A stretch of DNA of 64,000 nucleotides from Thermodesulfovibrionia bacterium (GTDB lineage Bacteria > Nitrospirota > Thermodesulfovibrionia > UBA6902 > BMS3Bbin08), in assembly GCA_030694425.1 (NCBI GenBank), contig JAUXYI010000063.1, positions 57,150-121,149 on the forward strand, written 5' to 3'. Of the stretch, positions 32,960-37,793 are shown piece by piece. How positions within the stretch are numbered: the first letter of the stretch is position 1; every line of letters begins with the position of its first letter. The translations under genes and the position numbers were made by a program. The notes under the pieces were generated by a model. It did no database searches, was not told the origin of the DNA, and worked only from the letters and a program-made list of their open reading frames with translations.

Positions 32960-33343
32960 TTATTGTTTTGAGGAGTATTTCTTAAACCATTCAACGATAT
33001 TTTCCAATGAGACTTTGCATGTAGCCACCTTAATGGTAAATAGCTCAAGTTCGTTCTGTGTGGTTTTGAGATAATAACCATTTATCTGAAGAAAAATACC
33101 TGCAGATGTTATGGCAGTTCTCTTATTCCCATCAATGAAGGGGTGATTTTTTATGAGAGATTCCATCAAGGCAGCAGCTTTATGGCAGATATCGGGATAT
33201 AGATCTTCGCTCCCGAATGTTGCTTTTGGCCTTGAGACAGCAGATTGAAGAAGCCCCAAATCCCTGATGCCGTGAGAGCCGCCTGTTTCATCAATGAGCC
33301 TGCTGTGAATAAAGAGAACCTGCTCTGCAGTAAGGTATCTCAC
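32960..33343 (-). CDS. doc: Fic/Doc family toxin (death-on-curing)
   Basis: HPFIDGNKR motif. Confidence 0.8.
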   Translation of the reverse strand: MRYLTAEQVLFIHSRLIDETGGSHGIRDLGLLQSAVSRPKATFGSEDLYPDICHKAAALMESLIKNHPFIDGNKRTAITSAGIFLQINGYYLKTTQNELELFTIKVATCKVSLENIVEWFKKYSSKQ

Positions 33344-33588
33344 TTCTTTGCGAGTTCTTTGAGCGCCGGTTCGTATTTTGCAATAAAATCATTCACCTGA
33401 GCAACAAATTCCTTATCAATGTTCTTAGGGTATTTCTTCTTTCTCACTGGTTCAATAACTATTCTTGAACTCTTTTCGTCAAGTTTTACGTCAATTTCGG
33501 AACCGACTGACAGATTGAGCTTTTCAAGCACATCAAGCGGGATTGACACCCCTTGACTATTGCCTATAGAACATATCTTTCTATGCAT
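33340..33588 (-). CDS. AbrB/MazE-fold antitoxin (Phd-like partner of Doc)
   Basis: SpoVT/AbrB swapped-hairpin pattern. Overlaps the doc start. Confidence 0.6.
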   Translation of the reverse strand: MHRKICSIGNSQGVSIPLDVLEKLNLSVGSEIDVKLDEKSSRIVIEPVRKKKYPKNIDKEFVAQVNDFIAKYEPALKELAKK

Positions 33589-33604
33589 AATTGCCTCCGT
33601 ACCA

Positions 33605-33745
33605 ATGTTATAACATAATTATAACAGAAAGCAATATTTCCTTTTCCCTTAAACTCCAAGATTCCTTTGTCTCTGAGACTCTATCCGAATCGGACTGACG
33701 GATTGTGGGGCGAATGTGTTTGTTGTCGGGATGAAGCTTAAGGAT
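33605..33745. repeat. toxin-antitoxin island boundary repeat copy 1 (AATCCCTTTGTCT ... GGATTGTGGGGCGRATG family)
   Basis: Read directly. Six copies, all in the same orientation. Confidence 0.4.
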
Positions 33746-33755
33746 GATGTATAGT

Positions 33756-34112
33756 TCAAGGGAGCGGACTAATTCTGATTCTGCCAGGACTGATAACAGC
33801 TACTTTATTTTTGAGTCTGTGGAGTTCTATTTTTTTAAAAGATCCTTTAAAAATATTTGTAATAATCGGAGCTTTGAAATTTGCTGGAACACGAATTAAT
33901 ATTACTCCAAAAGGTGCAGGCCTTAATTTTGGTATGGGGTAATCAAGGTCTCTTGTAACAATAATGCTTTTCTCCTTTGCAGCCTTAGCCCAGAGGATTT
34001 TATCTGAAGACCCTCTAAGATTTGAAGCTGCGACATCAAAAACATCATGTTTTAATGATGAGAGAAATTCTACGATTCCGAATGGCAGGTTTTCGTCAAC
34101 GAGAAACCGCAA
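33756..34112 (-). CDS. DUF5615 (Mut7-C/PIN-like) putative toxin
   Basis: RFLVDENLP start motif. TTG start overlaps the upstream DUF433 gene. Confidence 0.55.
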   Translation of the reverse strand: MRFLVDENLPFGIVEFLSSLKHDVFDVAASNLRGSSDKILWAKAAKEKSIIVTRDLDYPIPKLRPAPFGVILIRVPANFKAPIITNIFKGSFKKIELHRLKNKVAVISPGRIRISPLP

Positions 34113-34329
34113 TAAGGTGTTCCTCGGAAAGAGTTTCTGCTGCATAAGCAAGTGCAGCCCTCACGTCTTCCTCTTTGATTCTATATTCCTTGCACACTTC
34201 TCCGATGGTCATACCGCCAGCCAGCCCGCCGACGATTACCTTAACAGGTACTCGTGTGCCTTTAATAACGGGTTTGCCGCCCATGATATCAGGATGGATT
34301 TCTATTCTCTTTTTCCAGTCTGTCTTCAT
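34096..34329 (-). CDS. DUF433 antitoxin-like protein
   Basis: GGKPVIKGTRVPV and EDVRAALAYA. Confidence 0.7.
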   Translation of the reverse strand: MKTDWKKRIEIHPDIMGGKPVIKGTRVPVKVIVGGLAGGMTIGEVCKEYRIKEEDVRAALAYAAETLSEEHLIAVSR

Positions 34330-34339
34330 GTTTTAAATC

Positions 34340-34500
34340 TAACATAAACAGGCATTCTTTTCAATTATCTTTTATCTTTGAAAATTTAAAACAGGATACT
34401 GTATTGCCCTTTCTCCCTGGACTCCAGAATCCCTTTATCTCCGAGAATCTGTAACTGCTTGCGGATTTTGGGGGCGGATGTGCGTTTTGTTTTAAAATAT
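34340..34500. repeat. toxin-antitoxin island boundary repeat copy 2
   Basis: ...AGAATCCCTTTATCTCCGAG...GCGGATTTTGGGGGCGGATG. Confidence 0.4.
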
Positions 34501-34537
34501 TGTAGAATGTTAATAATTAGCTTTAAGGAGGATTACC

Positions 34538-34765
34538 ATGAGCAATCCGCTTTTAGAACGCATCTCTATTGACCCTCATATTTGCTTCGGCAAACCTTGC
34601 ATACGCGGCACCCGCATATGGGTTTCATTAATTCTCGATTTTCTTGCAAGCGGGATGAGCATTAAAGAAATTCTTGATGAATATCCGAGCTTGACGGAGG
34701 AAGATATTCGTGCTGCTATTGCATATGGAGCTGAGATGTCAAGAGAACGATTTGTAGAGGTTTAA
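34538..34765 (+). CDS. DUF433 antitoxin-like protein
   Basis: [13 protein letters not shown] and [10 protein letters not shown]. Confidence 0.7.
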
Positions 34766-34779
34766 GCCTAAATAACAGG

Positions 34780-35897: not shown

Positions 35898-35904
35898 TGA
35901 TCAA

Positions 35905-36045
35905 TTCCTTTACTCTATAAAACTATACTCCCCAATTCCATAATCCCTTTGTCTTCTTGATTATTTTTACTGCTGTGCTATGGAACTTCTGCGCTCAGAG
36001 ACTTTGGAACTGTTGTCCCTAATGGATTTTGGGGGAGGAGTAGGT
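35905..36045. repeat. toxin-antitoxin island boundary repeat copy 4
   Basis: AACTATACTCCCCAATTCCATAATCCCTTTGTCTTCTTGATTATTTTTACTGCTGTGCTATGGAAC...GGATTTTGGGGGAGGAG. Confidence 0.4.
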
Positions 36046-36323
36046 TAGGGATAGTATCTGTAAATTTCTTTTCTGTGCAGTGCCCTGCAACACTCTATAA
36101 CTTTTGATTCAATATCAATCTCTATGCCGACGCAATAATCACCGAAACGTACTTTATAAGATTTCTCATAACCTACAAGTTTTTCTAATCCTTTAATATC
36201 CGCCAGATTATCAATTTCAGGGAGAATGTCAAAACATAAATGCTCGGTCTTTATGCGAATATTTTTGAGGAGTTTTTTCAGTTCTTTCAAAAATGTCTTT
36301 TTGTAGAGGATTTGAAATTTCAA
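36045..36323 (-). CDS. RelE/ParE family toxin
   Basis: Typical RelE/ParE length and C-terminal pattern. Confidence 0.65.
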   Translation of the reverse strand: MKFQILYKKTFLKELKKLLKNIRIKTEHLCFDILPEIDNLADIKGLEKLVGYEKSYKVRFGDYCVGIEIDIESKVIECCRALHRKEIYRYYP

Positions 36324-36568
36324 GAGCGGGTTCTTTTACCATAAAACTTTTTTGCTTCTGCTATTGTTAGAGATTTTTCATCTTTAACTTCAAGGACATA
36401 CTGCCCAAGAGCGTAGTCTTCCAATACTTCTTCTATCTTCTTATATGTTTCAATAGGTATCTGAACGGCGATCTTTTTATTTTTGTCATCAACGATATAC
36501 TTCTTAGCTAAAGTTAACATCATGCCTCCTATAGAAACATTATAACTATTATCTCCCTGAAGCTGCAA
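36320..36568 (-). CDS. cognate antitoxin (small, overlaps the toxin gene)
   Basis: Positional call with 4-nt overlap. Confidence 0.45.
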   Translation of the reverse strand: MQLQGDNSYNVSIGGMMLTLAKKYIVDDKNKKIAVQIPIETYKKIEEVLEDYALGQYVLEVKDEKSLTIAEAKKFYGKRTRS

Positions 36569-36569
36569 C

Positions 36570-36700
36570 TGCTTTCATACAGCTTCCACGCTATTGTTCT
36601 TTTGGCTAATTGCACTCCTGATTATTTTTACTGCTGTGCTATTGCACTCATGTACTTAGGACCTGTTGAAACTGGCGGGTTTTGTGGGCGGATGTTAAGA
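36570..36700. repeat. toxin-antitoxin island boundary repeat copy 5
   Basis: ...TGATTATTTTTACTGCTGTGCTATTGCACTC...GGCGGGTTTTGTGGGCGGATG. Confidence 0.4.
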
Positions 36701-36741
36701 AATATATTGTTAAACCAAGATATTTCATATAAAATAACTAC

Positions 36742-37005
36742 ATGAAAACAGTAACCATACCGTATCCCGAAGGACTTCCTCAAACATTAAAGTTATCAGA
36801 TTCTGAATTTACAAAAGAAGTAAGATTTCTTGCAGCCGCAAAGCTTTATGAACTGGGGAAAATATCCTCAGGAAAAGCAGCAAAAATGGCTGGTTTGGAC
36901 AGGGTGTCTTTTCTTAAGAAGCTCGGTCATTATAAAATGCCCGCAATAAACATACAGGCTGAAGAAATAGAAAAGGAAGCAGAAGCAGTAAGATCTCTTA
37001 GATGA
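36742..37005 (+). CDS. UPF0175 family antitoxin
   Basis: Pattern ...EVRFLAAAKLYELGKIS.GKAAKMAG. Confidence 0.7.
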   Translation: MKTVTIPYPEGLPQTLKLSDSEFTKEVRFLAAAKLYELGKISSGKAAKMAGLDRVSFLKKLGHYKMPAINIQAEEIEKEAEAVRSLR

Positions 37006-37484
37006 AGATTGTCGTCAATACCGGCCCGCTTGTATTCCTTTCAAAAATAGACAGACTACACATCCTGCAAAAATTCGGAAACATACTTGTCCCTAAAGGC
37101 ATTATATCTGAAATCAGGCACAAGAAGGATGATGTATCAGCGGCGGTCGGCAAGATTTCTAATGACTGGCTAAAAATCAACGCTATAAAAAATAAAAACC
37201 TGCTCAATGTGCTTACAAAAGAGCTTGACGGCGGTGAAGCCGAAGTAATTTGTCTTGCCATTGAACAAAAAGCTGATTGGGTTGTTCTTGACGATCAGGA
37301 TGCCCGCCGCTTTGCTCATAGATACGGGCTGAATGTTATCGGGACATTAGGTCTTCTTGCCTGGGCAAAGAAAAAGGGTTTTATAAAAAGTTTTAAGAAT
37401 GAGGTAGAAAAACTGCGGAAAGCCGGTTTTTATGCAACCATTGCCCTTATTGAGAAATTATTACAGGAAGTAGAAGAAGATTAA
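37002..37484 (+). CDS. DUF3368 (PIN-like) toxin
   Basis: 4-nt overlap with UPF0175. VVNTGPL...EAEVI pattern. Confidence 0.7.
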   Translation: MKIVVNTGPLVFLSKIDRLHILQKFGNILVPKGIISEIRHKKDDVSAAVGKISNDWLKINAIKNKNLLNVLTKELDGGEAEVICLAIEQKADWVVLDDQDARRFAHRYGLNVIGTLGLLAWAKKKGFIKSFKNEVEKLRKAGFYATIALIEKLLQEVEED

Positions 37485-37494
37485 CTAACCTGTC

Positions 37495-37665
37495 CTTATT
37501 AAAACTATACTGCCATTTTCCTTAAAATTCCTCTGCGAGTCATAGACAGAATCCCTTTGTCTTGTCTGCACTTCTGATTATCTTTACTACTGCGCTATTG
37601 CACTTCTGCGCTTTGGAACTGTTTGAAGCTGGCGGATTGTGGGGCGGATGAAATACGGGAAGTGT
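37495..37665. repeat. toxin-antitoxin island boundary repeat copy 6
   Basis: AACTATACTGCCATT...AGAATCCCTTTGTCTTGTCTGCACTTCTGATTATCTTTACTACTGCGCTATTGCAC...GGCGGATTGTGGGGCGGATG. Confidence 0.4.
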
Positions 37666-37793
37666 CTCTGCCTAGTTCCCAAAATATAATCATCAGGATT
37701 TTTATTCTCTATGTGCTTCATCAAGAGTTCCCATAGCTCAGGCGTGAGGCGTAAGGCCGGGGGATATCCACGGCCTTACTTATGGGATGTGAA

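Follow-up and report, generated by a model that had tools for sequence, protein, structure and literature searches.

The subject of this study is an island of toxin-antitoxin (TA) genes in 64,000 nucleotides (nt) of contig JAUXYI010000063.1, from a Thermodesulfovibrionia bacterium, and this whole stretch is called the window throughout. Six TA modules stand in the island within 4.7 kb, and six copies of a repeat, R1 to R6, lie between and after them, all in the same orientation with respect to the plus strand. As judged from its sequence, each repeat copy is, on the minus strand, a relic of the stop codon and the last 25 to 45 codons of a DpnI-family restriction gene (…LHPDNKHIRPKIRQQLQILRDKGILEFKGKG.Y and stop). 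We consider it probable that the island, with its relics, is an array in which cassettes accreted at the 3' end of dpnI, and not an integron, and equally probable that the cassettes have since been exchanged among genomes.

Origin of the repeat

Two blocks are conserved in the repeat, a 5' core, AGAATCCCTTTGTCT, and a 3' core, CGGATTKTGGGGCGGATG. When the window was searched for the pattern of 5' core, gap and 3' core, three matches were found against none in 100 shuffles, and the 3' core alone had two matches where 0.09 were expected; neither pattern nor profile searches found a copy elsewhere in the 64-kb window. In species-representative genomes a loose form of the pattern matched 119 stretches, mostly by chance, and the only true relatives were L061, a Nitrospirota metagenome-assembled genome (MAG), and L094, a Thermodesulfovibrionales MAG, each with several repeat copies on the same strand. 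One of the copies in L061 ends a minus-strand open reading frame (ORF) of 77 amino acids (aa) that reads …LHPDNKHIRPKICQQLQILRDKGILEFKGQGKYQFK and stop, and this ORF, whose last 30 codons are the repeat copy, matches DpnI_C (Pfam PF17726, E = 4.6e-19). Because the L061 copy ends a DpnI_C ORF, the 3' core can be read as the codons for HIRPKI and the 5' core as the codons for RDKGIL, and the codons of the relics encode the tail of the DpnI_C winged helix. With the L061 ORF as query, tblastn matched the window copies R1 (frameshifted), R2, R3 and R6. When metagenomes were scanned with the same query, this gave 39 loci, many of which have an apparently full-length dpnI-like gene of 255 to 285 aa. 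In L125 a 255-aa gene encodes a full protein of DpnI and DpnI_C domains, as assigned by Pfam, and a repeat copy forms the 3' end of this gene. When 11 intact dpnI-like gene ends, none of them from the window, were made into an nhmmer profile, this found R1, R2 and R3 with the E values given in Table 1, and R6 and R4 weakly. The mismatch rates of 33 relics were 0.43, 0.11 and 0.14 at codon positions 3, 2 and 1, respectively, those of six intact genes were 0.47, 0.05 and 0.13, and downstream of the stop codon there was no third-position bias. The relics thus differ mainly at third codon positions and therefore each of them appears to have diverged as a working gene end. The original prediction, made from the letters of the window, had missed what Pfam, tblastn and nhmmer show, namely that the repeat is no free-standing element and is coding sequence of the opposite strand, the 3' end of a DpnI-family gene.

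The prediction was right that the repeat always points one way on the plus strand whatever the orientation of the genes, and all six copies do so. Its length of 130 to 280 bp holds only in part, as the homologous part is 75 to 250 nt and the rest of each spacer is cassette-specific, and the two-part core that was ascribed to every copy is not found in all of them: R5 is without the 5' core, R3 is composite, and the 3' cores of R3 and R4 are degenerate. R1 is frameshifted (LHPDNKHIRPTIRQ / LRDKGILEFKGKGNIAF), with its 5' core at 33658-33672 and its 18-nt core at 33699-33716, and it reaches into gene-body codons, overlapping the stop codon of the DUF5615 gene. In R2 the 5' core is at 34426-34440 and the core at 34462-34480. 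R3 consists of two partial copies around a filler of about 110 nt, that is, a gene-end arm with the 5' core at 34976-34990, a partial core copy, the filler, and a degenerate core at 35171-35189. R4 has the 5' core at 35940-35954, a low-complexity insert of about 68 nt and a degenerate core at 36023-36040, R5 has only a low-complexity insert and a core at 36676-36694, the gene-end arm and 5' core being absent, and R6 has the 5' core at 37548-37562, a low-complexity insert and a perfect core of the 18-nt type at 37633-37650. At the left edge of the island a possible core remnant (32932-32953) adjoins the end of the expression platform of a cobalamin riboswitch, and 28 of 500 shuffles score as well as it does.

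Inserts of two kinds are found in the relics. The low-complexity inserts of about 55 to 70 nt that separate the cores in R4 to R6 (35955-36009, 36616-36670 and 37572-37626) are pyrimidine-rich, are built of motifs of 7 to 9 nt such as TTGCACTTCTGCGC and are 73 to 76% alike, and inserts of this kind are also present in L094 (1640-1760) and L130 (about 9300-9368). The others are small and palindromic, either 15 to 17 nt of the form TCTAYGA-N-TCRTAGA or nested versions of 27 to 62 nt, and they occur at two fixed places, ahead of the AATCC of the 5' core and immediately ahead of the 18-nt core. They were seen in R6, where a near-palindromic insert of 16 nt (37532-37547) lies in the gene-end arm, and in L127, L133, L149, L132 (1397), L125 (9167), L157 (7225), L061 (3494 and 4277), L154 (6363) and L156 (278). 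In one variant both arms are changed and the palindrome is kept (CTATGA/TCATAG vs CTACGA/TCGTAG).

Arrays and cassettes in related genomes

The survey of arrays was based on 36 non-redundant related Nitrospirota sources, and two to four repeat copies were found in 19 of them. On one strand there were 64 copies and on the other only two, both inside different genes. Where the contigs are long enough, the order is housekeeping DNA on the left, then cassettes, then an R-M (restriction-modification) module on the right, and the cargo besides TA modules includes HEPN/MNT, HicB, AbiEii, a ParB-like gene and whole R-M units. In L124, L125, L127 and L128 a dpnI-like ORF of 255 to 259 aa at the right end opens the R-M module, and the last repeat copy is formed by the 3' end of this ORF itself. 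More distant dpnI genes are free of relics within up to 20 kb; genes of this relic-free kind were met only in the more distant clade, and no within-species pair of an empty and a filled site was recovered. No relative was found in viral contigs, no match to the 4.8-kb island was found in plasmid and phage collections, and a literature search of incomplete coverage found no paper describing such arrays. Two further observations concern these loci. About 2.1 kb to the right of the dpnI/methylase pair of L128 is a 495-aa ORF with reverse-transcriptase motifs (YADD; 5407-6894 in reverse-complement coordinates), which is probably a group II intron protein, and in L132 a direct duplication of about 250 nt with a 71-aa ORF (570-819 and 1798-2048, reverse-complement coordinates) has a relic and a RelB-like gene between its copies. 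In L128 the segment is single-copy, and the duplication is either a tandem insertion or an assembly effect.

Five of the six cassettes of the window, all except cassette 4, recur beside different neighbours. Cassette 1 is shared with L061 and L152, cassette 2 with L133/L134 at 97.5% identity over 33708-34375, and cassette 3 with L094, L152 and L160-L167. The DUF433 protein of cassette 3 is encoded in identical form on 12 other contigs in several contexts, with the toxin intact on some of them. Cassette 5 is shared with L127, L132, L148/149, L152, L123 and L126, and in its five closest matches (L127, L132, L148, L149 and L152) homology begins at 36024-36025, which is the core. Cassette 6 is shared with L133, L125 and L157. 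Exchange is also seen between close relatives. L125 and L157 have flanks that are 99.4% identical, and the replacement between them starts inside a repeat and ends inside the partner methylase gene, while L127 and L132 (99.2%) are the same up to 41 nt past the core, after which an intact dpnI follows in one of them and a type IIG R-M gene in the other. In all three informative pairs the gene-end arm goes with the cassette on its left, as it also does for cassette 3 in three arrays. The resemblance to a cassette array that had been pointed out from the window is therefore substantiated by TA cassettes that have other neighbours elsewhere and by boundaries internal to the repeat. Of 29 relics, only 7 had their nearest neighbour in the same locus, and pure duplication in situ was rejected as insufficient on this count.

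The boundaries center on the 18-nt core, CGGATTTTGGGGCGGATG, the codons for HIRPKI, at both sides of which the homology to dpnI is bimodal. To the right of the core, of 66 listed core-like matches, which include a few spurious ones, homology stops at the core end in 42, runs for at least 29 nt in 16 and ends between these points in 8, and at least 20 unrelated cassettes begin right after the core, within a few nt. On the left side the gene-end arm is complete in 29 copies and wholly absent from 28, in which there are other short sequences ending in …GAG immediately ahead of the core; hairpins looked for in these non-genic left arms by the core gave scattered z-scores and no common structure. 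Three core alleles occur to the left of the identical cassette 3, with the same sequence just past the core. Wobble positions vary less in the core than in the rest of the arm (0.23 vs 0.54), even in intact genes. These junction features would fit a short att-like site. A dyad site of the serine-recombinase type was tried as a candidate and rejected, since a central palindrome is not conserved across the aligned copies.

The DpnII block, the cassettes and the flanks

In the window the array is now orphaned, because the body of dpnI and the 5' part of its partner methylase gene have been replaced by a DpnII-type R-M block (Table 1). To the right of the block there is a relic of the partner methylase, 83 to 91% identical and with one frameshift, with DNA matches to L121, L124 and L129, and it forms the right edge of the variable locus, which spans about 32930-41983. 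Since the last 64 codons are what is left, the block has displaced the dpnI body together with the methylase's first 183 codons, and the replacement is the same kind of event as that which distinguishes L125 from L157. The block includes a gene for a ParB_N-domain protein (367 to 372 aa) that is shared with L157 (7325-8982, reverse-complement coordinates) at 84% DNA identity. Next to it is a small gene, for an HNH protein of 75 aa in the window and for a protein of 116 aa in L157; in L157 the unit of the 116-aa ORF and the ParB-like gene has a relic core at either side. An exact match to the ParB-like protein of the window was looked for and not found, and the same look-up for the DUF3368 protein gave one short contig only. 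The ParB-like pair had no PADLOC match, and the ParB-like gene and its small neighbour may be an undescribed defence pair.

Table 1. Island, replacement block and relics in window coordinates, from left to right
Feature	Position	Strand	Support
Possible degenerate remnant of 18-nt core, left edge of island	32932..32953	+	Local alignment to core and flank of L152, L061
Cassette 1 toxin, Fic/Doc	32960..33343	-	Pfam PF02661, E = 9e-21
Cassette 1 antitoxin, MazE/AbrB type	33340..33588	-	Pfam PF04014, E = 3e-10
Relic R1 (repeat 33624-33739)	33624..33781	-	nhmmer E = 5e-20; tblastn
Cassette 2 toxin, DUF5615 (PIN-like), maximal ORF	33756..34151	-	Pfam PF18480, E = 6e-19
Cassette 2 antitoxin, DUF433	34096..34329	-	Pfam PF04255, E = 8e-23
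Relic R2, one frame: PKIRKQLQILGDKGILESREKGQY	34395..34489	-	nhmmer E = 2e-17; tblastn
Cassette 3 antitoxin, DUF433	34538..34765	+	Pfam E = 2.5e-29
Cassette 3 toxin, truncated DUF5615, 50 aa	34780..34932	+	No Pfam match
Relic R3, composite	34941..35189	-	nhmmer E = 1e-8 (34941-34992); internal repeat D8; tblastn
Cassette 4 antitoxin, weakly Phd/YefM-like	35252..35518	+	Pfam E = 0.005, under curated cut-off
Cassette 4 toxin, PIN_2	35475..35897	+	Pfam PF10130, E = 5e-24
Relic R4, long form	35912..36040	-	Pattern match; nhmmer marginal, E about 0.7
Cassette 5 toxin, ParE/RelE-like	36045..36323	-	Pfam PF05016, E = 1e-4
Cassette 5 antitoxin, RelB-like	36320..36568	-	Pfam PF18506, E = 6e-24
Relic R5	~36590..36694	-	Repeat families D1/D2/D4; core table
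Cassette 6 antitoxin, UPF0175	36742..37005	+	Pfam E = 6e-24
Cassette 6 toxin, DUF3368 (PIN-like)	37002..37484	+	Pfam E = 1e-12; PADLOC PDC-S70, E = 1.5e-44
Relic R6, long form	37492..37650	-	Pattern matches, tblastn, weak nhmmer, core table
Replacement block	37651..41775	-	Pfam; PADLOC
HNH gene, 75 aa	37794-38021	-	Pfam
ParB_N-like gene	38215-39318	-	Pfam
DpnII endonuclease	39506-40255	-	Pfam/PADLOC
N6_N4 methylase	40450-41382	-	Pfam/PADLOC
Relic, last 64 codons of dpnI-partner methylase	41776..41983	+	tblastn with L125 methylase, E = 8e-25

That six TA units are present in the 4.7 kb is borne out by Pfam, with the one truncated toxin giving no match, and the assignments of the original prediction mostly stand. 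Pfam agrees with the DUF5615/DUF433 and UPF0175/DUF3368 units and identifies the unit of RelE with its antitoxin as ParE/RelE-like and RelB-like. In the supposed doc/phd unit the Fic/Doc toxin was correct and the antitoxin is of the MazE/AbrB type instead of Phd; in the supposed Phd/VapC unit the toxin is PIN_2 and the antitoxin is Phd-like only weakly. DUF433 with a truncated DUF5615 was also correct, as full-length 123-aa versions of the toxin follow an identical DUF433 in other metagenomes and the 50-aa stump has the same truncated form in L152. A perfect TTGACA-17-TATAAT lies at 35208-35236 near the cassette 4 antitoxin, and the promoter-like sites lie in cassette-specific DNA, which upholds the earlier view that the repeat is not simply a promoter. 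A sigma-54 or other promoter inside the repeat was considered and rejected, the spacing being inconsistent.

Directly to the left of the island is a cobalamin riboswitch (32513-32788, plus strand, 49.5 bits), the third in the window, with no plus-strand gene after it, and a 16-nt segment near its 5' end (32567-32582) has 94% complementarity to 32918-32933, right at the edge of the island. It seems that the island has cut this riboswitch off from what it used to control. The two other cobalamin riboswitches (8260-8466, 89.8 bits, and 19794-19981, 71.9 bits, both on the plus strand) are in a long run of plus-strand genes, and the genes scanned in this run include those for CobT-type (DBI_PRT) and CbiX/CbiC cobalamin biosynthesis proteins. 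Outside the array there are two nucleotidyltransferase genes of the MNT/AbiEii kind, at 42604-43161 on the plus strand (PADLOC candidate family PDC-M05A, E = 1.5e-27) and at 58848-59390 on the minus strand. A canonical parA/parB pair (56960-58556, plus strand) adjoins purine biosynthesis genes and therefore the window is chromosomal.

Mechanisms, alternatives and known systems

How could such an array have been built? A probable course is that small cassettes, mostly TA pairs, would pile up in tandem directly downstream of a dpnI-like gene, and that at each arrival the previous gene end would be left as a relic while a fresh copy would keep the gene intact. Because each arrival would leave the old gene end behind, the relics would face one direction whatever the orientation of the cargo and an intact gene would stand at the end of the array. 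Later, in the window, the DpnII-type R-M block would have taken the place of the gene body and half of the partner methylase. As to the enzymes, our tentative preference, held with less confidence than the accretion itself, is that the initial insertion would be the work of a site-specific recombinase whose gene lies elsewhere and which acts on the core, and that homologous recombination between relics would then shuffle, swap and spread the cassettes. It is a good deal less likely, though worth stating, that Thermodesulfovibrionales-type Nitrospirota have a dedicated integron-like capture system, in which a double-stranded 18-nt site in the 3' end of dpnI, and not a folded attC, would receive integrase-less mini-cassettes of TA and defence genes by means of a recombinase encoded elsewhere, the restriction gene being a landing pad that is repaired at each insertion.

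Several observations weigh against insertion by a recombinase followed by exchange, or are not accounted for by it. No recombinase was recognised in or beside the related arrays, including those of L125, L130, L149, L154, L157, L126, L146 and L160, in a check that used ORF maps and a sample of Pfam scans (precomputed Pfam tags for L160) and so covered part of the ORFs; this scope applies wherever the related loci are said below to be without such genes. In classical accretion arrays some of the units carry integrases. The only integrase seen near any array is in L130 (3610-4143, reverse-complement coordinates), 5 kb to the left. It is a truncated tyrosine recombinase of 177 aa, with Phage_int_SAM_4 and the start of the catalytic domain, and the genes between it and the array look ordinary, one of them being sigma-70-like. 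The core has no dyad symmetry and no neighbouring hairpin. Comparison of near-identical genomes puts the recent breakpoints at several places: within the low-complexity insert, on the left border of the core, and in the core or close to it. A lone core stands at the start of several arrays with unrelated housekeeping genes next to it, an arrangement not predicted by simple accretion at a native dpnI locus, and accretion gives no explanation for the palindromic and low-complexity inserts within the relics. In L154 (7278-7841, reverse-complement coordinates) a module of a RelB-like gene and a toxin is inverted relative to the repeats. This module is about 72% identical in DNA to those at L130 9428-9992 and in L061, L127 and L144, and its 97-aa toxin in L154 has no Pfam match. 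Finally, the host genome is known here from the window only.

The strongest alternative, which we consider possible and somewhat less likely than the participation of a recombinase, is that cassettes entered and moved only by RecA recombination between the gene-end relics of about 90 nt, for example when a circle of relic, cassette and relic integrates in the manner of Campbell or by unequal double crossovers after DNA uptake, the first duplications having arisen in the manner of R-M units that undergo 'insertion with long target duplication'. Such insertion is said to have been described by Nobusato in 2000. The two readings differ in enzymology only and the relic origin is common to both. 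That breakpoints lie at several positions of the repeat, with one replacement ending inside the methylase gene, makes homologous recombination a better fit for the recent events than a single crossover point. The lack of a recognised recombinase gene near the arrays also fits the RecA route, and so does the greater likeness of relics within a locus than between loci (0.81 vs 0.72, permutation p < 0.0002). There is moreover a precedent in the work of Furuta et al. (2010), in which R-M units flanked by direct repeats of more than 30 bp and without mobility genes were found mostly in naturally competent species (PMC2853133); the relics here are 75 to 130 nt and mobility genes were not found beside them. 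What speaks for a site-specific step is that the starts of the many unrelated cassettes fall within a few nt of one point past the core, that the ends of the duplicated segment are nearly constant whereas long target duplications are described as variable, and that the core is conserved beyond coding needs. RecA recombination also does not explain how wholly new cargo came to be flanked by relics.

An improbable reading is that integrase-bearing elements inserted repeatedly in the 3' end of dpnI and decayed to a TA module with att sites, like cis-mobilizable elements (CIMEs). The layout is indeed that of tandem accretion at a gene 3' end (PMC5704250; PMC3146451), TA modules resist loss, and some cassettes carry extra genes. 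Yet no integrase or element backbone was seen in the cassettes mapped across the 36 sources, the cassettes are uniformly small, and identical compact cassettes with the same ends occur in many arrays, which points to movement as small units.

The similarity to an integron array that the original prediction noted holds for the layout of short, shared cassettes with sites in one orientation, and fails for the attC hairpin and the integrase. It is very unlikely, and largely refuted already, that the island is a chromosomal integron or a cluster of attC sites lacking integrases (CALIN) with unusual attC sites, folded as single strands, and an IntI encoded outside the window. Same-orientation sites between cassettes of about 0.65 to 0.95 kb would agree with it, as would an imperfect complementarity of 11 nt between the two conserved ends. 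TA cargo in either orientation is typical of sedentary integrons and counts for this reading too. When the copies were folded as single strands, on both strands and with DNA and RNA parameters, the z-scores against dinucleotide shuffles were -2.2 to +1.6 and mostly near 0, so that the attC-like structure that folding was expected to reveal was not found in any copy on either strand. The pairing of the ends, CTCCAGAATCC with GGATTTTGGGG, showed no covariation in 23 aligned copies (385 to 464 of 500 shuffles did equally well), and the consensus fold by alifold is weak, -8.2 kcal/mol, and rests on G-T pairs. As had been noted from the window, GTTRRRY is absent, and neither it nor RYYYAAC occurs in any copy. 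No intI was seen in the window or the related loci, and the suggested search for a nearby recombinase was negative: a Pfam scan of 39 ORFs of the window gave no integrase, transposase or resolvase. These ORFs comprised the largest ones, except two, outside the stretch of the cobalamin operon (about 8.5-29.3 kb) and three inside it. Further, several copies lack the 5' half (R5 and the lone cores), and the repeat is the end of a protein-coding gene.

Least likely of all, barely worth entertaining, is a simple local tandem duplication or a small-RNA family or miniature inverted-repeat transposable element (MITE) family that lies by chance between TA genes, as the confinement of the copies to one 4.7-kb stretch of the window might suggest; this is refuted by the gene-end profile, by the codon bias, in that copies differ mainly at synonymous sites, and by arrays with other cargo in many genomes, while the intervening cassettes are mutually unrelated, the repeats have no stable fold and no Rfam match at E <= 1 (Rfam matched only the cobalamin riboswitch that adjoins the island on the left), and they lack terminal inverted repeats, target duplications and copies outside arrays, so that neither the small-RNA gene nor the MITE that had been proposed is retained.

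The reading that we prefer, accretion of cassettes at the 3' end of dpnI, accounts at the level of sequence for the accumulation of TA and other defence genes at a single place in the chromosome of an uncultured lineage. The tail of a restriction gene would serve as the landing site and every former tail is kept, so that the array records its own history. Integron-like cassette arrays may then be possible without attC hairpins or a local integrase. If a recombinase does act in trans, this would be a second, independent solution to gene-cassette capture, and if there is none, it would be, among iterated cases of the unexplained 'long target duplication' route for restriction and addiction genes, the clearest to date. 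For annotators there is a caution that conserved 'intergenic repeats' may be relics of gene ends on the opposite strand.

Of the known systems with which the array can be compared, one is the pneumococcal dpn locus, where DpnI, DpnII or DpnIII systems are alternative cassettes at one chromosomal site, and the DpnII block that stands in place of the dpnI body in the window echoes these alternatives. To our knowledge the pneumococcal locus has no array of gene-end relics or TA cassettes. The properties of DpnI and DpnII have been described (PMC4471560). With integron arrays the island shares short cassettes, site-like repeats of fixed orientation, TA cassettes with their own promoters facing either way, and sharing and reordering between genomes; unlike them, it has no attC hairpin, no conserved GTT/AAC triplets and no intI/attI platform that could be seen, and its repeat is a gene end. 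With long target duplication (PMC2853133) it shares defence or addiction genes between direct repeats of tens to hundreds of bp, without transposase or integrase and with an R-M locus involved, and it differs in being iterated 3 to 7 times at one site, with nearly fixed ends and mainly TA cargo. Closest in layout are the tandems formed by integrative and conjugative elements (ICEs), integrative and mobilizable elements (IMEs) and CIMEs, such as the ICESt1 family, which accrete at a gene 3' end (PMC5704250), and the ssrA islands of Dehalococcoides, 16 of 31 of which have an integration module including an integrase and whose repeat is 20 bp (PMC3146451). As in these, an intact target gene stands at one end, 3'-end repeats in the same orientation bound the units, many units are without integration genes, and the cargo is accessory or defensive. 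Unlike in these, the units here are of 0.65 to 1 kb with an integrase seen on none, the target is a restriction-endonuclease gene, the duplicated segment is about 90 nt and the relics contain odd small inserts. Four things set the array apart from tandem accretion and long target duplication as known: very small integrase-less units, iteration, a restriction gene as target and TA cargo.

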